NCBI GenBank assembly: GCA_043814605.1
Contig: JBDRJV010000007.1
Span: forward strand, 3,354 to 67,353
Reading direction: 5' to 3'
Length of the DNA stretch: 64,000 nt
Source: Candidatus Omnitrophota bacterium
GTDB lineage: Bacteria; Omnitrophota; Gorgyraeia; B26-G9
The translations under genes and the position numbers were made by a program. The notes beneath the pieces are model-generated. The model was given only the letters and a program-made list of their open reading frames with translations. It did no database searches and was not told the origin of the DNA. Shown one piece after another: positions 395-46,801 of the stretch (position 1 is the first letter of the stretch; every line of letters begins with the position of its first letter).

Positions 395-2866
395 ATGAAA
401 AAATTAAAATATAAAAAATTAAATAAAAACTTAGCAACGCTAACAATTGCTTTATGTTGGATTTTGTTTTCTGCTTCATTAGCCTTGGCTGCTAATCAAA
501 TGAGTCAGGATAGTTATTCATTCAGCGTAATTGAGGATAATGCTGCTCCTTATCTAGATCATTGTTTGCCTACGGCTAACGCAACTGATGTTCCTCAGCA
601 CACAAATATTCAGTTTACTATTAAAGATGACGTTTCCGGCGTTGATAGTGGTTCAATTGATTTGACAGTTGAAGGGCAGTTGATTATTAATGATGGAGTC
701 GTTCAGTCCTTTGTTAATTCAATAGGCATAACAGTTGATTATGATGTTGAAATAATTGAGAAAAATTCTTGTGAATACGTAATTATGTATGATCCTGCAG
801 AGTATTTTGATTACAAACAAGTGGTAAATATAGCAGTTTCCGCTTCCGATTTAGAGAATAATACAGCAGCGGCAATAAATTATTCTTTTAAAACCCAGAA
901 ATTTGTTTATGGCGTGATAAGAAGTCTATCCAGGAGAAATATTTTAAGTGATGCGGCTGAAGGGGAACAGGATTATTCTGCTATTGCCACTTCCTCTGAT
1001 GGAAAAAAAGTTTATATTGTTTGGCAGGAATATTCTCAAGATGGGCAATGGAATATTTATTATATGCAATCGCTGGATTTTGGTCAGACCTATAGCAGTG
1101 CCCAACAAGTTCATCCAACTCAAATAGGAGTTGACCATTGTAATCCTCAAATCACAATTGATGCATTGGATAATGTTTATGTTGTCTGGCAGCAAAGAAA
1201 CCACAGTGCAGACTGGGACATTTATGTAGCAAGCTTAAATAATGGCGATATGGAATTCAGCGATAGTTATCTTGTTTATAATGATTCTGGGTTAACTGAC
1301 CAAACTAATCCCGTAATTTGTGTAAAAGATGCTTTGACTGATGATGGAGATAGTAATACGCAGGAACCTGCGACCCTGTATATCGGCTGGGTGGATGCAA
1401 ATGCCGGAATAAATAGCATAAAATTTATCCGGACAACTGCTAATTATCAGGATTATTGGTATGAATTTGTAAATAACCCAGTACGTGTTGATGATGATCG
1501 CTGGCCGCAACAGGCGGGTGGATTAGCTTTAGAAGTCGACGATGCGGGAAATATTATTATTGCTTGGTTAGGAATTAATGTTGACGGCACCAACAGTATT
1601 TATCTTGACCGGGCGCAAAAATCAATAATTGACAGCGGAGAAAATTTTGGTACAGATATTGAAGTTAGTGCAGCAACAGCAGCACAAATAGCTCCGCGAT
1701 TAGAAGTATCTAGTGATGGAAATAATGCCTATGTTTTATGGTTATCTGAAAATCAAACTCAATGCAATCTGAATTTTTCTGATTATTTGTACAGCCAGGG
1801 ACAAGGGATATTTAATTTAGACAGTAATCATCAAGTAAATGCCACCGCGATTACTCTGGATAGTGTGAGTGGATACGACTTAAAAGTTGATGAGCAATCA
1901 GATGTTTTTGTTGTTTGGCAGGAAATACAATCTGGTAACTATATTGTAAAGATTGCCGGTGCGAGTGAATCAGACTATAATTTCGAAGAATATGTTGATT
2001 TTGATACAAGCGGAACTCAAACCCATCCGGTGTTAGCTTTAGATAATAACGGTTATCATTATTATACCGCATGGTCAAATGATAGTGACGGGGTAAAAGA
2101 AATTAATTTATGCAGGAATACTTTTATTGAAACTGATTCTGTTAGTTCTCAAAAAATTGAAAATGATGTCGGCGGCAGTATTAATGTTACTAGCGGCGAT
2201 TTAAGCGGTACAAATGTTACGGTAATCCAAGATTCTGTAGAAACTCCTTTACAGGTCACAATTGCAGAAGTTGTTGCCGCTCCTTTAACAGCTGGGAATT
2301 TAGTTGTGGTTAGCAATGTTGTTGATTTTGGCCCGGGAGGGACTCAATTTGGTACTCCGGCTACAATAACAATCCCTTACACAGAGGTTCAATTAGATAG
2401 TGCGGGAATTACCAATAATGCTAGTTTAAAAATTTATTACTATAATTTAGCGGCTCAGGATTGGGAAGAAATGCCGGGATCAAGTATTGATTTAGCCGCG
2501 GAAAAAATATCTGTTTCTACAGATCACTTTTCTATGTATGCAATTTGCGGCGACCCGACAAGTACAGTAGATACAGGCAGTATTATTACCCCAGCAGTCT
2601 CAGCTTCATCAGGCGGTGGCGGCGGAGGAGGATGTTTTATTGCTACGGCAGCTTTTGGTACGAAGATGGCTAAAGAAGTCAAAATTCTCTGTGAATTTAG
2701 AGACCGGTATTTATTAACTAATTATTGGGGAACACAGTTTGTAAAGTTTTATTATAAGAACAGTCCGCCGATTGCAGATTATATCAGACAGAAAGAAGGT
2801 TTAAGAAGTATGATTAGATTCTGCTTAAAACCGTTGATTAGCCTGAGCAGAATGATATGTGATTAA
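395..2866 (+). CDS. Large secreted protein: signal peptide (ALA-AN cleavage site), six or more beta-propeller-like (Y/F)VVWQ repeats, poly-Gly linker and a Cys-containing C-terminal about 80-aa module (GGGGGGGCFIATAAFG...)
   Basis: 823-aa ORF. The N-terminus is basic then hydrophobic then AxA. Repeats recur: YIVWQEY..WNIYY, YVVWQQ..WDIYVA, YIGWVD, IIAWLG, YVLWLS, FVVWQE. It is the first gene of the exosortase locus. Confidence 0.6.
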   Translation: MKKLKYKKLNKNLATLTIALCWILFSASLALAANQMSQDSYSFSVIEDNAAPYLDHCLPTANATDVPQHTNIQFTIKDDVSGVDSGSIDLTVEGQLIINDGVVQSFVNSIGITVDYDVEIIEKNSCEYVIMYDPAEYFDYKQVVNIAVSASDLENNTAAAINYSFKTQKFVYGVIRSLSRRNILSDAAEGEQDYSAIATSSDGKKVYIVWQEYSQDGQWNIYYMQSLDFGQTYSSAQQVHPTQIGVDHCNPQITIDALDNVYVVWQQRNHSADWDIYVASLNNGDMEFSDSYLVYNDSGLTDQTNPVICVKDALTDDGDSNTQEPATLYIGWVDANAGINSIKFIRTTANYQDYWYEFVNNPVRVDDDRWPQQAGGLALEVDDAGNIIIAWLGINVDGTNSIYLDRAQKSIIDSGENFGTDIEVSAATAAQIAPRLEVSSDGNNAYVLWLSENQTQCNLNFSDYLYSQGQGIFNLDSNHQVNATAITLDSVSGYDLKVDEQSDVFVVWQEIQSGNYIVKIAGASESDYNFEEYVDFDTSGTQTHPVLALDNNGYHYYTAWSNDSDGVKEINLCRNTFIETDSVSSQKIENDVGGSINVTSGDLSGTNVTVIQDSVETPLQVTIAEVVAAPLTAGNLVVVSNVVDFGPGGTQFGTPATITIPYTEVQLDSAGITNNASLKIYYYNLAAQDWEEMPGSSIDLAAEKISVSTDHFSMYAICGDPTSTVDTGSIITPAVSASSGGGGGGGCFIATAAFGTKMAKEVKILCEFRDRYLLTNYWGTQFVKFYYKNSPPIADYIRQKEGLRSMIRFCLKPLISLSRMICD

Positions 2867-2869
2867 TAG

Positions 2870-3300
2870 TTATGAATGATGAGTTACGAGTTACGAGTGA
2901 CGAATTATAAGTGACGAGTTGCGAATTACGAATGACGAATTATGAATTAAAAGCGAATAGAAAAGCAGAGAAAAAAGAAAGGAGTTTTAGATAAACACAG
3001 ATCTAAAAGCTTAGATGAACAATGATAGGAAAGTAGATAGAAACCGAGAGACGAGGGACGAAGGAAGAGAGACGAGAAAATAGAAAATATATAAAGTTAC
3101 AAATTACAAGTGACGAATTACGAATTAAAAGCGAATAGAAAAAAACAAAAAAAGAAAAAACTAAAAAGCAAATAAGAGAGACGAAAAAGCGGATAAATTT
3201 TTTAAAAAATAGTTTTTTAAGCGAACGAAGAGAGCGTTCGTCCTTCATGCTAAAGAGTGGAACGAATGGTCGTCTTTCAGACATCGGTAAAAACAGGTAA
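2870..3300. repeat. Composite heptad-periodic intergenic repeat, copy 1 (a gagttac/gaattac tandem 7-mer run plus conserved blocks shared with 9040-9361)
   Basis: Read directly: gagttac gagttac gagtgac gaattat aagtgac gagttgc gaattac gaatgac gaattat, with the 7-nt phase kept for about 400 nt. Blocks 3082-3120 and 3205-3287 are near-identical to 9186-9225 and 9282-9361. Confidence 0.75.
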
Positions 3301-3550
3301 CGGGATTGCTGGAAACGGGTTAACTAGTTTAAAAAATAAGCTGACAAATAAGTGGGAGGCTTAAAAACGAGGGCTTGGTTTTTTAAATTCCAGGCTCTTG
3401 TTTTTTTTAAAAATCAGTGTTATAGTTAGAAAATAGCGAAGAGAAAAAATGCTGCAAGTTGCAGGACTCAGGCTACAAAAGAACGAAAAAACAATAACTG
3501 AAAAAAGTGAACAGCGTTTAGCGATTAGAAAAATCAAAAAATTAAAAATT

Positions 3551-4393
3551 ATGGATAAAAAATTAGTAGATTATTTAACAGTTTTGCTGATTGTATTGTT
3601 TTTAGCAATTATGTATTATCCTGCATTTATTTGGATGTGGGAAAGATGGCATGCTCCTGATACCAATTATAGCCATGGGATATTGATTCCTATTGTTTCT
3701 TTATTTTTGCTTTATTCAAGAAAAGAAAGACTTAAACAAATTCAAATTAAACCGGAAGGTTCAGGTATTATCTTCGTTTGTTTAGCAATTTTAGTGCATA
3801 TTACCGGGAACATGATAAATTTTCCCTTTGCCAGTGCTTTTTCGTTTATAATTATGTTAATCGGAATTGTGCTTTTTTTATTCGGAATAAAAATACTAAA
3901 AGCAGTTAAATTTGAAATATTGTTTTTATTATTCATGATTCCTGCACCGCTAATGTTAATTTCAAATTTAACAATAAGAATGAAATTATTTGCTGCGGGC
4001 ATTGCGACAAATTGTTTGAGTGTAATGGGATTAAAGGCAGTAAGAGAAGGCAGTATGATTCGTATGGGGCATTCATTTTTAGAAATTGAAGCGCCTTGCA
4101 GCGGGTTAAGGTCATTGATTTCCTTATTGGCTTTTGGCGCTGCCTTTGCCTATCTGACAAAACATAAATTTTGGAAAAAAGTAGTGCTTTTTGCAACAGC
4201 GCTACCCATTGCCCTAATTGCTAATGCCGGACGGATAGTCTTGCTAGGCTGGGTGAGTGAGGTATATGGTATGCAGGCAGCACAGGGATGGGTGCATGAT
4301 TTTTCTGGTTTTCTTTTATTCTTTTTTGCTGCTTGCGCGATGATTGCTGTAAATAGCATTTTAATAACACAAAAAATTGATGAACAAAAATAA
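3551..4393 (+). CDS. Exosortase (EpsH/XrtA-family transpeptidase)
   Basis: Polytopic membrane protein with exosortase signature motifs: YSHG (N-terminal), the catalytic Cys in EIEAPCSGLRSLISL, and NAGRIVLLG (Arg motif). I chose the MDKK start at 3551 because the upstream in-frame stretch from 3449 lies inside repeat sequence. Confidence 0.8.
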   Translation: MDKKLVDYLTVLLIVLFLAIMYYPAFIWMWERWHAPDTNYSHGILIPIVSLFLLYSRKERLKQIQIKPEGSGIIFVCLAILVHITGNMINFPFASAFSFIIMLIGIVLFLFGIKILKAVKFEILFLLFMIPAPLMLISNLTIRMKLFAAGIATNCLSVMGLKAVREGSMIRMGHSFLEIEAPCSGLRSLISLLAFGAAFAYLTKHKFWKKVVLFATALPIALIANAGRIVLLGWVSEVYGMQAAQGWVHDFSGFLLFFFAACAMIAVNSILITQKIDEQK

Positions 4394-5324: not shown

Positions 5325-5341
5325 TGGCACAGAATATGCTT
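5325..5341 (+). promoter_or_regulatory. Sigma-54 (RpoN)-type promoter: TGGCAC-N5-ATGCT with the -24 GG and -12 GC spaced correctly
   Basis: The sequence tgGCacagaatatGCtt lies about 100 nt upstream of the sugar transferase start. A sigma-54-dependent activator is encoded 5 kb downstream. Confidence 0.45.
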
Positions 5342-5436: not shown

Positions 5437-6222
5437 ATGAAAAGATTTAATGATTTTGCAAAAATAAATATTAGGATTTTAACTATAGCGGTAATAATGT
5501 TTTCGCTATTAGTAATTCCCAAAGTAATGGCAATGTCTTTGGAAGAGGTAATTGATCTTAAGCCATACGGCTTTTTTGCTTTTTTATTCGGTATAGGAAG
5601 CAGTATGCTGCGTTTTGCACAAACCAAATTTAAAAAAATTAAACGGGTTTTTGATATTATTATTGCTCTAGCGGCCCTAATAGTAACTTCACCTTTACTA
5701 TTAGTTTCTTCCCTATTAATTAAGTGGTTTTCACCAGAAGGCCAAATTTTTTATACACAAAAAAGAGTGGGAAAAGATGGAAAAGTGTTTGAAATTTATA
5801 AATTGCGTTCAATGAAACCAGATGCAGAAAAAACTACCGGAGCAGTATGGGCTAATGAAGATAATGATCCCCGAGTGATTCCGGTGATTGGAAATTTTTT
5901 AAGACAATCGCATATAGATGAAATTCCGCAGTTTTTTAATGTATTAATCGGGGATATGAGTGTTGTCGGCCCCAGGCCAGAGAGACCAGAAATCGTAGCA
6001 GATCTAAAGCATAAAATTAGGGAATATGAAAAAAGACTGTATGTGCGTCCAGGGATTACGGGTTTAGCGCAGATAAGAAACCGTTATGATAAAACATTAA
6101 GTGATGTTAAGAAAAAAGTAAAACTTGATCTAATGTATATTCGTAAAATGTGCTTGTTTGGAGAAATAAGCATTCTTTTGAGAACATTTGTTGTAATTTT
6201 TAAGGGAAAAGTTATTAGTTAA
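5437..6222 (+). CDS. Undecaprenyl-phosphate sugar phosphotransferase (bacterial sugar transferase family, exosortase-associated type)
   Basis: Conserved C-terminal catalytic region: KLRSM, DEIPQFFNVLIGDMSVVGPRPERP, GITGLAQ. The in-frame GTG at 5410 is an alternative start. Confidence 0.8.
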   Translation: MKRFNDFAKINIRILTIAVIMFSLLVIPKVMAMSLEEVIDLKPYGFFAFLFGIGSSMLRFAQTKFKKIKRVFDIIIALAALIVTSPLLLVSSLLIKWFSPEGQIFYTQKRVGKDGKVFEIYKLRSMKPDAEKTTGAVWANEDNDPRVIPVIGNFLRQSHIDEIPQFFNVLIGDMSVVGPRPERPEIVADLKHKIREYEKRLYVRPGITGLAQIRNRYDKTLSDVKKKVKLDLMYIRKMCLFGEISILLRTFVVIFKGKVIS

Positions 6223-6969: not shown

Positions 6970-7020
6970 CACGCTCAGGGATGAGATATTCTGGGAAAAA
7001 TCCCTGAGCGTGTTTTTTTA
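6970..7020 (+). terminator. Rho-independent terminator (cacgctcaggga ... tccctgagcgtg plus T7)
   Basis: 12-bp perfect stem followed by a TTTTTTT run, directly after the PEP-CTERM gene. Confidence 0.65.
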
Positions 7021-7065
7021 TGTTTTAGCATATAGAACTGATTGAAAATACAAAGGTTAGGGGGC

Positions 7066-7094
7066 TTGACAAATAGGTTTACATAAGGTATACT
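7066..7094 (+). promoter_or_regulatory. Sigma-70-like promoter: TTGACA, 17-nt spacer, TATACT
   Basis: Consensus -35 hexamer with exact 17-nt spacing to a 5/6 match to the -10 hexamer. It lies about 160 nt upstream of the membrane-protein gene. Confidence 0.35.
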
Positions 7095-7252
7095 TCTGCA
7101 GCCTATTTTTTTTGGTCTTAATGTTGATAAAAATCAACACTGTTGAAAACGTTGAATCTTTTAAAAAGTTATTGATAAATATTAATTTTGTTTTTTATAA
7201 GTAGTATTTTTAAGACACAAATTCTTAAAAGATTTAATGGGGGTTAGTTTGT

Positions 7253-8125
7253 ATGTATACAAGGAAAATATCTGGTTTAAGGATTATTCAGAGATCATGG
7301 CTAGGATGTTTTAATCTGATATTTGGGAAACCCGTAATTGTCTATCCTTTTTTATTTATAAGTATTTTAGAATTAATAAGCATTTTAACTTTATTCCTAT
7401 TCATCCAGCCGCCTTTAGTTAAATATATTAATCCGATTGTGTTACGTTTCTGGGGAGAGAAATTTTTACATTATCCTTTAAATCTGGTTTTATTATCCCG
7501 TCTTTTTTCCTATCTTCAATTAGCAGTTTTAGTCATATTTGGCACTTTTGCTACGGGGATGACGATAAATATGTCTGCGGATTACTTCCTCAATAACCAG
7601 TTTTCCTTTAAAAAAGCGGTATTAGCCACGATTACTAAATATGTGAGTTTATTAATAATCTCATTATTAATATTCTTCCTTTTACATCAGAGCCAAGTAT
7701 TAGAAAATAGAGTACTGCTTAAAATATTAAATAGGGGAAGGTCTTTTTTAGGAGTGGGAGTAGAAGATTGGAAAACGCTTTTCCTTGTATTTTCTGTGGT
7801 TGTTTCGGGTATTATCCAAACAATATTTATATTTATACAGCCCGCAATCATGATTGAAAATAAGAACTTTTTTTTGGCTATTTTTAGGAATTTAAGTTTT
7901 GTAATGAGAAACTTATTTTCCGCTTTAATATTAACAATTATCCCTTTAACTGTATTTATTCCGGTTGTGTTGCTAAAAAGTAATATGATTGTTCTGATGA
8001 ATAGGCTTATTCCGGAAATAGTTTTTATCATACTTATTGCGGGGGTTTTTATTTCGTTTTTTATAAATTTAGTGATTACAATTTCTATAACTAAAGCATA
8101 TTTAGTAATAAAGAATGATAAATGA
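7253..8125 (+). CDS. Polytopic integral membrane protein, function unknown
   Basis: 290-aa ORF with eight or more hydrophobic helices. It sits in the exosortase locus. Confidence 0.45.
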   Translation: MYTRKISGLRIIQRSWLGCFNLIFGKPVIVYPFLFISILELISILTLFLFIQPPLVKYINPIVLRFWGEKFLHYPLNLVLLSRLFSYLQLAVLVIFGTFATGMTINMSADYFLNNQFSFKKAVLATITKYVSLLIISLLIFFLLHQSQVLENRVLLKILNRGRSFLGVGVEDWKTLFLVFSVVVSGIIQTIFIFIQPAIMIENKNFFLAIFRNLSFVMRNLFSALILTIIPLTVFIPVVLLKSNMIVLMNRLIPEIVFIILIAGVFISFFINLVITISITKAYLVIKNDK

Positions 8126-8141
8126 CAAAACTCGGAGCGAT

Positions 8142-9035
8142 ATGAAAAATTTAATACGCAGATGTGCTTTATCCGTAGTTTTAGCTTTAAGCCTGGGAGT
8201 TTTAAATTCTGGATGCATCCAGCAATATACTGTTGAACGAATGCTCTGGCAGGCAAATAAAGCGGCGGAACCGATATTTATAAATCAAGGTTCTGTCCCA
8301 AGTTATGAATTTAACAGGGTTATCGCATTATTTGATAAAGTTATTGAAAAAGTACCAGGATCAAGTTATGCATTAAAATCTAAACTGAGGAAAGCTTCAC
8401 TTTTTATTTCACAAAATTCGTATGAAAAAGCCTTTAAAATTTATGATGATGTAGTTACGGAATATAAAGAACAAAAAGAAATTTGCGCCAGAGTTATTTT
8501 TTTAAAAGGCCAAGCCTGTGAAAAACAAGGCCTGTGGGATAAGGCATTAGAATTTTTTAATCAGATATTATTAGAATATGAAAAAACACAAAAAAGCTTG
8601 GCGGTTCCTTTATATATCGCGAGGTATTATAGTGAAAACGGGCAGGATAGCCAAGCGCAGCAAGCGTATTTAGGAGCGGTTATGTATTTTCAGTCAATTG
8701 CAGATAAATACCCAAATACTAAAGGCGCGGTATTATGCGAAAATTTGATTGTGCGGACTTATTTGGAAATGGGAACCTGGGGAAAAGCTGCTGAATATAT
8801 AGAGCAATTAGATGGAAAATATAAATTGGGGCCAGATACTCTTCTGGTGCTTGCGAGAATTTATGATAATAAGGTAAAGGATCCAGTCCGCGCTAAGCAA
8901 ATTTATCAGCGAATTTTAGAAAATTATCCTAAACATAAAATTATTGAAGCGGTGAAAAAGGATATGAAAAAACTTATTACCAGTGAGCCGGTGGCCAATG
9001 AGCCGGTTGACAGTGAGCCGGTAAATAGTCAATAG
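8142..9035 (+). CDS. TPR-repeat lipoprotein
   Basis: Lipobox LNSGC after a signal peptide. TPR-like helical repeats follow, and the C-terminus carries an EPV repeat tail. Confidence 0.5.
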   Translation: MKNLIRRCALSVVLALSLGVLNSGCIQQYTVERMLWQANKAAEPIFINQGSVPSYEFNRVIALFDKVIEKVPGSSYALKSKLRKASLFISQNSYEKAFKIYDDVVTEYKEQKEICARVIFLKGQACEKQGLWDKALEFFNQILLEYEKTQKSLAVPLYIARYYSENGQDSQAQQAYLGAVMYFQSIADKYPNTKGAVLCENLIVRTYLEMGTWGKAAEYIEQLDGKYKLGPDTLLVLARIYDNKVKDPVRAKQIYQRILENYPKHKIIEAVKKDMKKLITSEPVANEPVDSEPVNSQ

Positions 9036-9039
9036 TCGA

Positions 9040-9361
9040 TGGTCAATGGGTTGAAGTAAAAAGGATAAAGGATAAAAATTGAATGCTGCAAGCTGCAGGG
9101 AAAAATCAATGATGAGTTACGAGTAAACTGAAGGACGAGGGACGACCGCTGCGCTAGGACGAGAGACGAAAAAACAGAAAATATATAAAGTTACAAATTA
9201 CAAGTGACGAGTTATGAGTGAAAAGCAGATAGAAACCGAGAGATGAAGGACGAGGGAAGAAAAAGTTGATAAATTTTACAAGAAATAGTTTTTAAAGCGA
9301 ATGAAGAGAGCGTTTGTCCTTCGTCCTAAAGAGCGGAGCGAATGGTCATCCTTCGGACTGC
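9040..9361. repeat. Composite heptad-periodic intergenic repeat, copy 2 (shares blocks with 2870-3300 and the aaaggataaaggataaa block with 19070)
   Basis: Near-identical blocks gaaaatatataaagttacaaattacaagtgacga and aatagtttttaaagcgaa.gaagagagcgtt.gtccttc...gagcgaatggtc. Two compensatory changes relative to copy 1 preserve the small hairpin. Confidence 0.7.
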
Positions 9362-9386
9362 GGTTAACACTAGTAACAGAGGATAT

Positions 9387-10517
9387 ATGCAGGAATTTTT
9401 AGAAATAATACTGAATCAATGTTTAAATATTTTAGAATCAGATAGCGGTTCGATTTTATTATTGGATAAAAATAATCAGGATATTGTTGTGCGCGTTGCC
9501 CGGGGCAAACATAAAACTTCGATCTTAGGCAAAAAAAACCGTCTGGGAGAAGGTATTTCCGGCATGGTTGCACAACAAAAAAAACCGCTTTTAATTGAAG
9601 ACTTACGTAAAGATGAAGCCATTAAAAATATGTGCCGGGAACAAAATTATCGCACGCATTCGTTTCTTTCGGTGCCGCTTGTTTTTTCCGGCCGCTTGTT
9701 AGGAGTCTTAAATATCACGGAAAAAACAAAAGGCGAACCTTTTTCAATTAAAGAATTATCATATGTCAGCGCCATCGCCAGTTGCGCCGCAGGGACAATT
9801 GACCGGATGTTTTATAACGAGCATTTAGAAAGGCAGTTGGAATCATTTAAAAATTCTACAGCGGTTAGTAAATTTACATCCGCGATTGCCCATGAATTAA
9901 ATAATCCGCTGGATGGAGTATTGCGTTATTTACGCCTGGCAATAATGCAAGTGCCGGAACAAAATGTGCTAAAAGAATATTTATTGGAAATCCTCTCAGG
10001 GGTAAAACGCATGTCGGAAATAATTAAATCTATGCTGGAATTTTCTTTTGCCGGCGATCGAAACCATAGTCCTATTGCACGGGATAAAGTTGATGTGAAT
10101 GAGATTATTCAAAAATCAATAACTTTTTATAAACAAGAGGCTTTTTTTAAAAATATTGAAATTAAAGCAGAATTAGCTCCGGCATTGCCAAAAATTAAAG
10201 ATTGCGGCTTAATTCAAGTATTTAATAATTTTATTAAAAATGCAATTGAAGCTATTCTTGAACAGGGGCAATTATCTATAAAAAGTTATCAGGAAAATGA
10301 TAATATTTTTGTGGATTTTATTGATACAGGTGTGGGTTTAAATAAAGACCTAAAGGATAAAATTTTTGAGCCGTTTTTTACAACAAAAACTAAAGGTAAA
10401 GGATTAGGATTAGCAATTGTGAAAGAAGTTGTTAGCTGTTATGAGGGAGAAGTGAAAGTGGAAAGTTTAATTCCTAAAGGAACAAAATTTACTTTAATGA
10501 TTCCAATACGGAGGTAA
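9387..10517 (+). CDS. Cytoplasmic sensor histidine kinase (GAF - HisKA - HATPase)
   Basis: H-box IAHELNNPL and G2-box GLGLAIVKEVV. The N-terminal region is GAF-like. The RBS agagga sits 6 nt upstream of the ATG. Confidence 0.8.
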   Translation: MQEFLEIILNQCLNILESDSGSILLLDKNNQDIVVRVARGKHKTSILGKKNRLGEGISGMVAQQKKPLLIEDLRKDEAIKNMCREQNYRTHSFLSVPLVFSGRLLGVLNITEKTKGEPFSIKELSYVSAIASCAAGTIDRMFYNEHLERQLESFKNSTAVSKFTSAIAHELNNPLDGVLRYLRLAIMQVPEQNVLKEYLLEILSGVKRMSEIIKSMLEFSFAGDRNHSPIARDKVDVNEIIQKSITFYKQEAFFKNIEIKAELAPALPKIKDCGLIQVFNNFIKNAIEAILEQGQLSIKSYQENDNIFVDFIDTGVGLNKDLKDKIFEPFFTTKTKGKGLGLAIVKEVVSCYEGEVKVESLIPKGTKFTLMIPIRR

Positions 10518-13059: not shown

Positions 13060-13240
13060 AGTGGCTCATAGCTCATGGCTGATAGCGAATAAAAATTATG
13101 AGTGATGAGTTATAAGTGAAAAGCGAAAAAGCAGCGAATAGCGTTTAGCGATTAGGAAATACAAAGACAAAAGCAAAAAATAAAATAAAAACTAGAAAAC
13201 AGGTAACTGGCCAACAGGATAACTGGCTAACTGTATAAGA
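13060..13240. repeat. Heptad-periodic intergenic repeat between convergent genes
   Basis: Read directly: gtggctc atagctc atggctg atagcga ... ttatgag tgatgag ttataag tgaaaag cgaaaaa gcagcga atagcgt ttagcga. The gcgtttagcgattag block is also present at 3515. Confidence 0.65.
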
Positions 13241-17173: not shown

Positions 17174-18157
17174 ATGCTTATCTATATTGTAAGACGTTTG
17201 TTTATGCTTATTCCGATGTTGCTGGGTATAAGCATAATTTCTTTTCTGGTAGTTTGTCTTTCCGGTGATCCTGTCGATGTGCAGTATCAGCTTAATCAAA
17301 AAGTGAGTTTAGAATTAAAGGAACGCATTAAAGAAGCAGAAGGCTTTAACCAGCCGCTCTGGCAGCAATATTTCCGGTGGCTTAAGGGAATCATTAAATT
17401 TAATTTTGGGATTTCTTTTATTGACCGTCGTCCGGTGATAGAGAAAATAAGAGAGCGAATCCCGATTACGTTAACAATAAATATCTTATCCCTGCTAATA
17501 ATTTTTTTAATCGCAATTCCTATCGGAGTTTTTAGTGCCGTATGGGAGCAGTCTTTTTTTGACCGGGTAATGACTGTTTTTGTTTTTATCGGCTTTTCCT
17601 TACCTACATTCTGGCTGGCCTTACTTTTAATGCAGTTTTTCGGGGTTAATCTGCATTGGCTGCCTGTGTCCGGGATAAGATCCCTAGAATTTGAATATTT
17701 TAGTATGTGGGGTAAATTTGTAGATTTAGCCCGGCATTTAATCCTACCAATTTGTCTTTCAGCTTTTACAAGCCTTGCGGGAATTTCACGTTATATGCGT
17801 ACAAATATGATTAATGTGCTTAAGCAGGATTATATTCGTACAGCCTATGCCAAAGGATTACCTAAAAATAGAATTTATTTTCGTCATGCTTTAAAAAATG
17901 CGATTTTACCAATTATTACAATCCTCGGATTATCTGTGCCGGGGTTAATCGGCGGCAGTGTAATTTTTGAATCAATATTTGGTATTCCAGGGATGGGTAA
18001 ATTAGCTTATGATGCGGTGATGTCCCGGGACCGTTATGTGATTATGGGCATTTTAATAATTAGTTCTTTGCTAACGCTTTTGGGTAATTTTCTCGCGGAT
18101 TTAGCCTATTGCTATGCTGATCCGAGAATTAGATATGAATCAAATAATGAAAAGTGA
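17174..18157 (+). CDS. ABC transporter permease, OppB/DppB-like
   Basis: Six TM helices, an EAA-loop region, and the conserved N-terminal MLxYIxRRL. Confidence 0.8.
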   Translation: MLIYIVRRLFMLIPMLLGISIISFLVVCLSGDPVDVQYQLNQKVSLELKERIKEAEGFNQPLWQQYFRWLKGIIKFNFGISFIDRRPVIEKIRERIPITLTINILSLLIIFLIAIPIGVFSAVWEQSFFDRVMTVFVFIGFSLPTFWLALLLMQFFGVNLHWLPVSGIRSLEFEYFSMWGKFVDLARHLILPICLSAFTSLAGISRYMRTNMINVLKQDYIRTAYAKGLPKNRIYFRHALKNAILPIITILGLSVPGLIGGSVIFESIFGIPGMGKLAYDAVMSRDRYVIMGILIISSLLTLLGNFLADLAYCYADPRIRYESNNEK

Positions 18158-18194
18158 TAAGTTATGAGTGATAAATTAAAAGTGAAAAGACAGG

Positions 18195-20153: not shown

Positions 20154-20947
20154 AAAATATACATAAACATTATAAATTACAGAAAACTATTTTTTCTAAA
20201 AGTAAATTTATTAAAGCTGTGCATAATGTTTCTTTTGAGATAGAACAGGGAGAAACTCTCGGATTAGTGGGAGAATCAGGCTGTGGCAAGTCGACTTTAG
20301 CCAAAATCATTCTGAAATTAATTGATGCCACAGAAGGTGATATTTTTCTGGAAAATATAAATATTACACGGCTCAAGAATGAAGCATTTCGTCCTTTACG
20401 TAAACAACTGCAGATTGTTTTCCAGGATCCCTACAGCAGCCTTTCTCCCGGGCTTAAAATAAAAGATATTATCAGCGAAGGATTGATAGCATTTAAATTT
20501 GAAAAATCTCAAATAGTAAACAGAGTAAATGAATTAATTCATCAAGTTGGCCTAACCCCAGAACATTTAAATCGTTTACCGCATCAGTTAAGCGGCGGAG
20601 AACGCCAGCGTGTGGGCATTGCACGGGCTATAGCAATAAATCCTAAACTAATTGTGCTGGATGAGGCAGTATCGAGTTTAGACTTGTCAATTCAGGCGCA
20701 AATTTTAAATTTACTGGTTGATTTACAAAAAAAATATAATTTAACTTATCTTTTTATTGCGCATAATTTACATGTGGTGCGTTTTATCAGTGACAGAATC
20801 GCAGTTATGTATCAAGGGGAAATTGTGGAGACAGGAAAAACAGAAGGTATCTGGCGTAATCCCCAACATCCCTACACAAAGCGCTTACTGAGCAGTATGC
20901 CATCAATGGAGAAGAAAAAAGCGAAGGACGAAGGACGAAAAAAATAA
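20135..20947 (+). CDS. ABC transporter ATP-binding protein, OppF/DppF-like
   Basis: Walker A GESGCGKST, signature LSGGERQR, Walker B IVLDEAVSSLD. Confidence 0.85.
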   Translation: MAILKLKNIHKHYKLQKTIFSKSKFIKAVHNVSFEIEQGETLGLVGESGCGKSTLAKIILKLIDATEGDIFLENINITRLKNEAFRPLRKQLQIVFQDPYSSLSPGLKIKDIISEGLIAFKFEKSQIVNRVNELIHQVGLTPEHLNRLPHQLSGGERQRVGIARAIAINPKLIVLDEAVSSLDLSIQAQILNLLVDLQKKYNLTYLFIAHNLHVVRFISDRIAVMYQGEIVETGKTEGIWRNPQHPYTKRLLSSMPSMEKKKAKDEGRKK

Positions 20948-21130
20948 AAAAAGTTATAAATTATAAGTGATGTGTGATAAATTAAAAGCTAAAAACTAAG
21001 AGCTAAATGCTAAATTGGCTAACAGCTGATAGTAAAAGCGAAAAAAGCAAAAAATTGGACGTAGATGGACGCAGATTAGCAGGATTAGAGCAGATTGAAA
21101 GAAATTTTCTGATAATCTAGTGCTCTGTTT
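20945..21130. repeat. Heptad-periodic intergenic repeat
   Basis: Read directly: gttataa attataa gtgatgt gtgataa attaaaa gctaaaa actaaga gctaaat gctaaat tggctaa cagctga ... Confidence 0.6.
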
Positions 21131-27493: not shown

Positions 27494-27554
27494 TTACTAT
27501 TAAATAAGTTATAACATAATAGTAATTATTTATGAATTTTTAGCAATTTATACA

Positions 27555-27660
27555 TCCGCGGCCTAAAACCGCTCCCATTTATGGCGCGGATAAAAGGAGG
27601 CCGCTTGAGTATTCCAGGCCAGGAACACGGGCTTTAGCCCGTGAGGGGGTCCATTAGGCA
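27555..27660 (+). ncRNA. GC-rich structured intergenic element, a candidate small RNA or cis-regulatory RNA
   Basis: GC content is locally far above the flanks. Perfect hairpin cacgggc-ttta-gcccgtg. Imperfect stem atccgcggcc...ggcgcggat. No ORF. Confidence 0.3.
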
Positions 27661-46725: not shown

Positions 46726-46801
46726 TGGTGGAGCTGGGGGGACTCGAACCCCCGACCAACAGACTGCCAGTCTGCTGCGCTCCCAACTGCGCTACAGCCC
46801 C
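46726..46801 (-). tRNA. tRNA-Ala (anticodon GGC)
   Basis: Reverse complement GGGGCTGTAGCGCAGTTGGGAGCGC...CTGGCAG...GGGGGTTCGAGTCCCCCCAGCTCCACCA. It has the G3-U70 identity pair. CCA is encoded. Confidence 0.85.

Follow-up and report, generated by a model that had tools for sequence, protein, structure and literature searches.

Mosaic intergenic repeats with an imperfect palindrome: a probable new family in Omnitrophota

The 64,000-nt stretch of contig JBDRJV010000007.1 analysed here (hereafter the window; G+C 35.7%) comes from an Omnitrophota metagenome-assembled genome (MAG). Two spacers of its PEP-CTERM/exosortase locus each carry a copy of a composite repeat ending in a block of about 100 nt, which an initial annotation had read as a conserved RNA hairpin. 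We find the block to be the 3' half of the stem of an inverted-repeat element and not a proven small regulatory hairpin. The reading we favour, with confidence a little above even, is that this element is a mosaic, imperfectly palindromic intergenic repeat of the ERIC/BIME/MITE kind, built of heptamer arrays and constituting a new family in Omnitrophota. What we observed was its anatomy, its sense orientation, the polymorphism of its insertions, a confinement to Omnitrophota in the collections searched, and a predicted long hairpin abutting the ribosome-binding site (RBS).

The two window copies form a genuine repeat, far above chance. The spacers at 2867-3448 and 9036-9386 were joined by one collinear local alignment (3040-3315 versus 9124-9395; 73% identity, few indels) that included an exact 35-mer (3082-3116 = 9176-9210), and the terminal blocks at 3205-3305 and 9281-9381 were detected at nhmmer E values of about 1e-29 to 1e-30 and shared 84% identity over 70 core columns. 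The match reported for the first block, 3082-3120, was upheld, with its partner moved by about 10 nt from 9186-9225 to 9176-9214. A cyclic permutation of internal blocks between the copies (X-Y versus Y-X) had also been proposed. The copies are instead collinear, and the impression of permutation arose from a recurring purine-rich X-like module (GATAGAAACCGAGAGAYGA..GGACGA, akin to GAAGGACGAGGGACGA), present at 9128-9172 and 9225-9260 in copy 2 and at 3031-3080 in copy 1, with a remnant at 3171-3190. The idea that both copies are excerpts of a longer tandem array is thereby superfluous. A direct repeat, D14 (3022-3068 and 9214-9260; 85%), reflects the same module, and words of its version GATAGAAACCGAGAGATGAAGGACGAGGGAAGA also occurred in locus L024.

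The block is non-coding. A 93-aa minus-strand open reading frame (ORF) at 3003-3284 had no counterpart over 9281-9381, the ATG of a 17-codon plus-strand ORF in copy 1 was missing from the other copies, and a 25-nt insertion in locus L004 disrupted any frame through the block. Coding potential was excluded, since frames differed between copies.

The element would span about 260-310 nt and, among the collections searched, be restricted to Omnitrophota. It would consist of five parts: a purine-rich left module in which GGACGAR heptamers surround a short centre; a variable filler of other heptamer-like words; a conserved AAAAGCGGATAA...TAGTTTTTTAAGCGA..GAAGAGAG stretch; the block itself, a copy of the left module in reverse complement; and a closing GGTNANAAC..GTAAC. 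The left module, module C, had the consensus AACCGAAGGAYGAKGGACGATCG-[CTGCGC or TTCCCnTTGGTCAC]-TAGGACGAGGGACGC, and a hidden Markov model (HMM) of it matched copy 2 at 9128-9172 (E = 6e-10). The block HMM also matched the opposite strand 100-200 nt upstream in copy 2 and in loci L002 and L004. These upstream matches were module C, whose reverse complement is about 65-70% identical to the block. The arms measured 60-70 nt and were about 70% complementary, and the inverted repeat reached out to GTTAC...GTAAC. Inverted-repeat alignments of the three intact copies exceeded shuffles by z of about 9.6, 8 and 4.6 (copy 2: score 43 versus a shuffle mean of 17.7, sd 2.6), and copy 1 did not rise above shuffles. 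The copy 1 block was also the most divergent of the four (84-89%).

Copy 2 (9116-9377) is thus intact and lies directly 5' of a histidine kinase gene, and copy 1 (3031-3305) is decaying and lies in a 3' untranslated region (UTR). Copy 1 was assigned to the 3' UTR of the upstream gene because a strong intrinsic terminator stands between it and the exosortase gene (3355-3420 folds at -20.7 kcal/mol, z = -3.7, equal stability in 0/200 shuffles). A position just upstream of genes, as annotated for both copies, therefore held for the kinase, whose ATG (9387) is 10 nt past the stem base of copy 2, and failed for the exosortase. The kinase Shine-Dalgarno sequence, AGAGGA at 9378-9383, touches that stem base.

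To examine the predicted structure, full-length sense strands were folded (minimum free energy (MFE) and centroid) and compared with shuffled sequences. Copy 2 (9110-9386) formed a 47-bp stem with 4 G-U pairs between 9116-9175 and 9312-9377 (-70.0 kcal/mol, z = -5.7, none of 200 shuffles as stable). The L002 copy formed a 50-bp stem (-91.4 kcal/mol, z = -2.4, 0/100 shuffles) and the L004 copy a stem of at least 33 bp (-80.5 kcal/mol, z = -4.4, 0/200 shuffles). In all three, the long-range stem was present in the MFE as well as the centroid structure. Copy 1 (3030-3310) kept a stem of about 12 bp (-39.9 kcal/mol, z = -1.3), and 19 of 200 shuffles were as stable. RNAalifold on the arms alone gave 47 consensus pairs, two of them compensatory, with several one-sided wobble-compatible changes. 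The sense strand folded more stably than the antisense strand (-70.0 versus -50.6 and -80.5 versus -72 kcal/mol). By manual count the sense-strand stems held about 16 G-U pairs versus 5-6 A.C mismatches, an excess that would be weakly consistent with selection on the sense RNA and that a strand rich in G and U should show in any case.

The small hairpins of the initial annotation were found exactly where it had placed them (Table 1). The compensatory change proposed for them was seen, with T-A in copy 1 replaced by C-G in copy 2. In copy 2, though, the outer G-C pair has turned into A.C, and covariation was not significant: on a structural alignment of four sequences only, 231 of 500 shuffles matched the observed score. 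Over the four copies the closing pair read UA, CG, UG and CG. In the proposed helix 98% of cells were paired and 13 of 16 pairs were invariant; the score of an alternative local helix was equalled by 267 of 500 shuffles, again with four sequences. Folded alone, the block was not more stable than shuffles (z = -1.5, -0.6, -0.2 and -0.1). In the full fold of copy 2 the bases at 9349-9357 pair with 9134-9140, and full-length folds generally engage the small-hairpin nucleotides in the 33-50-bp stem with the upstream inverted module. One of the two compensatory stem pairs uses a block column that the initial annotation had placed in the small hairpin (G-C in copy 2, A-U in L002, A.C in L004). What stands of a conserved RNA hairpin is a block conserved at 84-93% in three Omnitrophota MAGs, in sense orientation and non-coding, features in keeping with a transcribed RNA element that is possibly under constraint; the covariation claimed for its small hairpin does not.

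Further copies were sought with an exact 19-base block pattern scanned over 596 Gb of species-representative genomes. Three matches were obtained, of which two, L002 and L004, were true copies in Omnitrophota MAGs. The third, L003 from Neomarinimicrobiota, lay inside a coding region and was rejected as chance. The true copies thus number four, from three different MAGs, all Omnitrophota. The same pattern gave two chance matches and no true copy in JGI metagenomes, two patterns gave no match or chance matches only in IMG/VR, and plasmid and phage BLAST searches returned no block copy. Rfam 15 at the gathering threshold yielded only tRNA/tmRNA-type matches in the window, and no family fell on the block at E <= 10 over 2860-3460 and 9030-9420 or at E <= 1 over all of L004. 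The four blocks were 84-93% identical, and the foreign copies 86-93% identical to those of the window. Host proteins were only about 60% identical to those of the window (kinase 61%, HypD 60%) despite this block identity. In every copy collected (four) the block lay on the sense strand of its neighbouring genes.

The L002 copy lies between hypF and hypC within a hyp operon, and the L004 copy 5' of a gene for a 292-aa membrane protein that is followed by a TPR gene. From their order, size and shared upstream promoter, this L004 pair is probably orthologous to the window genes at 7253-8125 and 8115-9035. The genes that follow the block are unrelated (kinase, HypC, 292-aa protein), and copy 1 runs into the terminator. 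Insertion contexts are accordingly a 5' UTR, the interior of an operon and a 3' UTR.

Presence or absence at orthologous sites was assessed in the PEP-CTERM loci of eight additional sources, whose kinases are 58-67% identical, and in hyp operons from relatives of L002 (HypD 81-88% identical), giving about 263 kb of non-redundant Omnitrophota DNA. By nhmmer and covariance model (CM), the block was absent from all orthologous loci sampled in this DNA. Kinase orthologues in many Omnitrophota MAGs, at 58-67% identity, share the start ATGCAGGA and lack the element. On this ground the block was excluded as a conserved kinase or exosortase leader, since orthologous loci L007-L014 and L019-L022 have no block. 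Polymorphism was seen at three sites. The TPR-to-kinase spacer is 351 nt in the window versus 8-19 nt in L008 and L010. The hypF and hypC genes overlap in the window, are separated by 80 nt in L034 and by a full element in L002; the hypF-hypC spacers of L024-26 are mosaics with module C, heptamers and (GGTCAAT)n and have no block, and in close relatives of L002 the spacers carried related modules without a detectable block. The L004 element separates the start codon from a TTGACA-N17-TATACT promoter with a leader conserved in six loci, and the equivalent window region (7066-7150) lacks the element. Because orthologous spacers lack the block, the element was interpreted as a sporadic insertion into transcribed spacers.

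Two of these sites showed further features. The conserved TTGACA-N17-(G)GTATACT promoter and its leader (T-run, TGTCTAAAAAAAACAACAGTGTT) lie 5' of the 290-aa gene, with 74% mean column identity over six Omnitrophota sources; in L007 they precede the kinase instead. In one related Omnitrophota population, represented by L011 (9574-9965) and also by L012-L014, the TPR-to-kinase spacer carries a frameshifted gene of PF05635, the 23S rRNA intervening-sequence protein or Avd-like four-helix-bundle family. By our own reading heptamer arrays of the TTAGC type, inverted relative to each other, lie on either side of this gene, and a second PF05635 gene lies 6 kb away (L011 16348-16578, minus strand). 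Cassettes bounded by inverted repeats thus seem to insert preferentially in the TPR-to-kinase spacer, which would be a hot spot for them. A link of the window repeat to a PF05635 gene or a diversity-generating retroelement was rejected: the window has no PF05635 gene, and the differences between copies were not adenine-specific.

The modules themselves were strand-biased. Module C occurred in 8 independent copies in the sampled Omnitrophota loci, and in each the purine-rich strand is the sense strand of the neighbouring genes. GGAYGA was found 26 times sense versus 4 times antisense where both flanking genes are on the plus strand, the 4 being the blocks; spacers flanked by minus-strand genes amounted to just 1.9 kb, so this count does not separate transcription bias from replication bias. 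Module C in sense and the block in antisense are separated by shared motifs (Y, X', AAAAGCGGATAA...). Modules were differently recombined in L002, L004, L020, L022 and L024, with L020 and L022 holding a solitary module C, and CGCTGCGCTAGGACGAG was identical in window copy 2, L022 and L024. By TRF, spacers and arms are largely period-7 arrays and the unique centre of the block is not. At least 15 such arrays lay in window spacers, including 2884-2949, 3045-3077, 3097-3127, 9020-9049 and 9060-9076. The array at 2868-2953 belongs to the same mosaic spacer as copy 1. Other spacers of the window held further arrays (129-152, 260-296, 13064-13155, 13198-13233, 18150-18189 and 20922-21014), and the window's heptamer units (TTACGAA, GGTCAAT, AAAGGAT, GCTCATA, TAACTGG, TAAAAGC and others) were strongly strand-biased relative to flanking genes.

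The favoured reading would work as follows. Sporadic insertion between co-directional genes, always oriented so that the sense strand begins with the purine-rich arm, would lead to co-transcription. The arms would then pair in the mRNA as a 33-50-bp imperfect duplex whose base falls 0-17 nt 5' of the next gene's Shine-Dalgarno sequence. Such a duplex could serve as a processing site for a double-strand-specific (RNase III-type) enzyme, as a stabilising 5' or 3' stem, or both, and would uncouple the expression of adjacent cistrons as in ERIC, Correia and REP/BIME elements. A post-transcriptional role of the hairpin in mRNA processing, stability or translation is one we infer by this analogy.

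Known repeat families share parts of this design. The ERIC (IRU) sequences of enterobacteria are imperfect palindromes of about 127 bp in transcribed intergenic regions, and Neisseria carries Correia elements; the hairpins of both are targets of RNase III or RNase E that alter mRNA stability. Like them, the Omnitrophota element is an imperfect palindrome in transcribed spacers in or beside operons, is present or absent at orthologous sites, is conserved in sequence between species and has a predicted long mRNA hairpin. Unlike them, it shows no sequence kinship, is about twice as long, has a variable loop of 120-170 nt and has arms of heptamer repeats. ERIC occurs in both orientations, whereas the Omnitrophota element is strictly sense, with unequally conserved arms and an apparently low copy number. 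BIMEs and REPINs consist of REP palindromic units in alternating orientation and are mobilised by RAYT transposases. They too are extragenic and co-transcribed, remix a small vocabulary of modules in each spacer and form hairpins from inverted key modules. Inverted units combined with other conserved motifs, the hallmark of REP, BIME and REPIN, were present here in units longer than canonical REPs: modules are 45-100 nt instead of 20-40 nt, hundreds of copies per genome were not demonstrated, and no RAYT or IS200-like gene was among the 10 window and 9 L002/L004 proteins scanned with Pfam, with no dedicated search made. Similar to MITEs, the element is 250-300 nt long, non-coding and polymorphic in insertion, with long terminal inverted repeats detected in three copies (z = 4.6-9.6); it differs in that the sampled loci showed no target-site duplication, cognate transposase or near-identical copies within one genome, and in its unequally conserved arms.

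Intervening sequences (IVS) of 23S rRNA are inserts bounded by inverted repeats, some with a PF05635 ORF, and are excised by RNase III. The architecture of inverted repeat, insert and inverted repeat is the same, and L011-L014 carry the PF05635 gene at the copy 2 site. Unlike an IVS, the element lies outside rRNA, its window copies contain no ORF, and its arms are unrelated in sequence. Integron attC sites and IS200/IS605 ends were considered and rejected: the ends misfit RYYYAAC/GTTRRRY, and the arms are inverted and not same-strand hairpins. Period-7 arrays in window spacers, often right before start codons, recall the cyanobacterial STRR and the Beggiatoaceae TAACTGA repeats, the latter proposed as direct-repeat binding sites for a post-transcriptional regulator of the S1, Csp or CsrA families (MacGregor 2015; PMC4679880). 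The window units GGTCAAT and TAACTGG resemble STRR2 and TAACTGA. Head-to-tail repetition at period 7, typical of these families, extended over flanks and arms and not over the unique centre of the block. The units differ (TTACGAA, GGACGAR, AAAGGAT and others), and the element joins two complementary arrays to unique hairpin-forming sequence.

Several observations weigh against a mobile, ERIC/BIME/MITE-like repeat acting through its RNA. No target-site duplication was evident at the outer boundaries of copy 2, L002 or L004, and the Pfam scan described above turned up no transposase, no search for transposases having been made. Only four block copies were found in the roughly 263 kb of Omnitrophota DNA, just two of them (84% identical) in the 64-kb window, and another 11 kb from the L004 genome contained none; the DNA sampled thus gave no sign of the abundance typical of REP or MITE families. 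Copy 2 was nearer to L002 (93%) and L004 (90%) than to copy 1 of its own genome (84%). The right arm was conserved at 84-93% versus a mean of 71% for the left, an asymmetry that is unexpected for a transposon with two equivalent ends and hints at extra constraint on the block. A G/U-rich sense strand outfolds its complement even without selection, and the roles in RNase III processing and mRNA stability are proposed by analogy.

We regard as possible, if doubtful, that DNA dynamics alone gave rise to the repeat, which would then be selfish or neutral and without host function, either a MITE or a by-product of heptamer-array generation and inversion, young or horizontally spread. Patchy presence at orthologous sites, the long inverted arms, the visible decay of copy 1 and an identity between genomes above that within a genome all suit such an origin, as does the reshuffling of the same modules among loci and genomes, of which CGCTGCGCTAGGACGAG is an example. 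It fits poorly with the unequal conservation of the arms and with sampled loci in which no target-site duplication, high copy number or transposase was seen (no transposase search was made). A neutral transposon should not show strict sense orientation unless selection removes its antisense insertions, and the preponderance of G-U over A.C in the stems speaks weakly for selection on RNA.

Unlikely, in our judgement, is an autonomous cis-regulatory RNA leader of the next gene, binding a ligand or protein, with the upstream inverted module incidental or an accessory anti-sequence. The conservation of the block, well above that of the left arm and at 84-93% across MAGs whose orthologous proteins share about 60%, argues for it, as do the location of three of the four copies in PEP-CTERM/exosortase loci and the finding that the three intact copies stop 23-31 nt short of a start codon. 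Two local helices that exclude each other (CGAACG/CGUUCG and CGUUCGUCC/GGAGCGAAUG) show 95-100% pairing with wobble-compatible changes only, their invariant G-U pairs would read A.C on the other strand, and the 25-nt insertion of L004 falls exactly in an apical loop. These same helices did not fold above shuffles or covary significantly, no Rfam family was found for them even at E <= 10, and in full-length folds the long-range stem takes up the block. Orthologous genes in eight other sources lack it, and unrelated downstream genes, or a terminator in copy 1, leave no conserved link to one gene family or pathway.

A related and quite unlikely reading makes the 100-nt block a functional RNA signal that is peculiar to the phylum, maintained by purifying selection and carried as a portable cassette, recognised for example by a processing nuclease or by an RNA-binding regulator that also reads GGA-rich heptamers. 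It was kept open because the right arm is conserved above the left and likeness between genomes exceeds that within a genome. If true, it would put unrelated operons (PEP-CTERM/exosortase and hydrogenase maturation) under common post-transcriptional control, and the purine-rich upstream arm would be the built-in anti-sequence or switch of the signal.

Very improbable is a DNA-level promoter or enhancer, for instance a site for the neighbouring sigma-54 activator PrsR, duplicated before genes of the PEP-CTERM locus: three of the four copies do lie in PEP-CTERM/exosortase loci encoding a sigma-54 activator, and the locus has a sigma-54 promoter at 5325-5339, but this is the sole TGGCAY-N6-TGC match in the window, neither composite has a -24/-12 motif, no sigma-70-like site was reported within the blocks, one copy is inside a hyp operon, the L004 element is downstream of a conserved promoter in a 5' UTR, and orthologous PEP-CTERM loci lack the element.

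Table 1. Coordinates of the repeat, its modules and neighbouring features (window positions unless a locus is named).
Feature	Position	Strand	Basis
Composite element copy 2, intact imperfect palindrome, predicted single long hairpin in sense transcript	9116..9377	+	fold and inverted-repeat alignment
Left arm of copy 2: GTTAC + purine-rich module C (GAAGGACGAGGGACGA-CCGCTGCGC-TAGGACGAGAGACGA), GGACGAR heptamers flanking short centre	9116..9175	+	HMM
Module Y (AAAATATATAAAGTTACAAATTACAAGTGACGAGTTATGAGTGAAAAGC), heptamer-like filler of hairpin loop	9176..9222	+	35-mer shared with 3082-3116; period-7 arrays by TRF
Second purine-rich X-like module (GATAGAAACCGAGAGATGAAGGACGAGGGAAGA), cause of apparent permutation	9225..9260	+	direct repeat D14
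Terminal block copy 2, palindrome right arm + conserved 5' extension TAGTTTTTAAAGCGAATGAAGAGAG	9281..9381	+	nhmmer E = 3e-30; CM R1 117 bits
Small hairpin TCC-TTC-GGA, copy 2	9349..9357	+	read from sequence
Composite element copy 1, degenerate, left arm decayed, ~12 long-range pairs left	3031..3305	+	fold
Terminal block copy 1	3205..3305	+	nhmmer E = 3e-29; CM R1 120.6 bits
Small hairpin GTCT-TTC-AGAC, copy 1	3272..3282	+	read from sequence
Heptamer tandem array, TTACGAA-like, ~9 copies, directly 3' of 823-aa gene stop codon	2868..2953	+	TRF periods 7/14/21/28/35
Intrinsic terminator, 16-bp stem + U-run, between copy 1 and exosortase gene	3363..3405	+	fold
GAF-HisKA-HATPase sensor kinase (PrsK-like), PEP-CTERM/exosortase locus	9387..10517	+	Pfam
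Conserved promoter/leader, window	7066-7150	+	
Conserved promoter/leader, L004	505-590		
Conserved promoter/leader, L019	95-185		
Conserved promoter/leader, L021	285-375		
Conserved promoter/leader, L022	2875-2965		
Conserved promoter/leader, L007	9518-9600		

The PEP-CTERM/exosortase locus that houses both copies was delineated by Pfam on 10 window proteins near the repeat. Its order is an 823-aa protein gene, copy 1, EpsH exosortase, EpsI/DUF3485, sugar transferase, PEP-CTERM protein, 290-aa protein, TPR protein, copy 2, GAF histidine kinase, sigma-54 response regulator and PocR-GAF protein. The sigma-54-type promoter at 5325-5339 (+), TGGCACAGAATATGC, lies about 70 nt 5' of the sugar-transferase gene and is likely the target of the adjacent PrsK/PrsR-like two-component system. 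The motif recurs at the same place in two orthologous loci (L007 at about 8345-8360 and L010 at about 5715-5730; TTGGCACGTAAAATGCTT and TTGGCATAATAAATGCTA). A small palindromic module, AATGCTGCAAG(Y)TGCAGG, is repeated in these spacers (window 3449-3466 and 9083-9100, plus strand; L020 at about 115-135; L024 at about 7018-7032). At copy 1 it supplies an artefactual ATG start for the exosortase ORF (3449-4393). The true start probably lies downstream of 3449, because the Pfam match begins only at residue 50.

Elsewhere in the window, a G+C-rich, apparently structured segment (CCGCGGCCTAAAACCGCTCCC...GGGCTTTAGCCCGTGAGGGGG) occupies 27540-27660 (+) amid AT-rich DNA, in the spacer 5' of hypA. An Rfam tmRNA call at 46726-46801 (-) was barely over threshold (47.3 versus 47 bits); ARAGORN assigned the segment to tRNA-Ala(GGC), and a tRNA is the most likely identity.

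Many independent metagenome assemblies of a single Omnitrophota species (L026-L033, first 100-700 nt) break off no more than a few hundred bases upstream of hypD or hypC, in the mosaic repeat spacer, which suggests that these repeats fragment assemblies as repeated DNA should. The element could account for fragmented assemblies at such spacers. Even if it were only a selfish repeat, it would still document that heptamer words with a strand bias make up Omnitrophota spacers, a likeness to filamentous cyanobacteria and Beggiatoaceae that would represent an unexplained convergence or exchange. Omnitrophota are uncultured, and to our knowledge nothing is known of how gene expression is controlled in the phylum. 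A portable long hairpin, about 90% conserved between genera and placed at RBSs, would be a first handle on post-transcriptional control in Omnitrophota.

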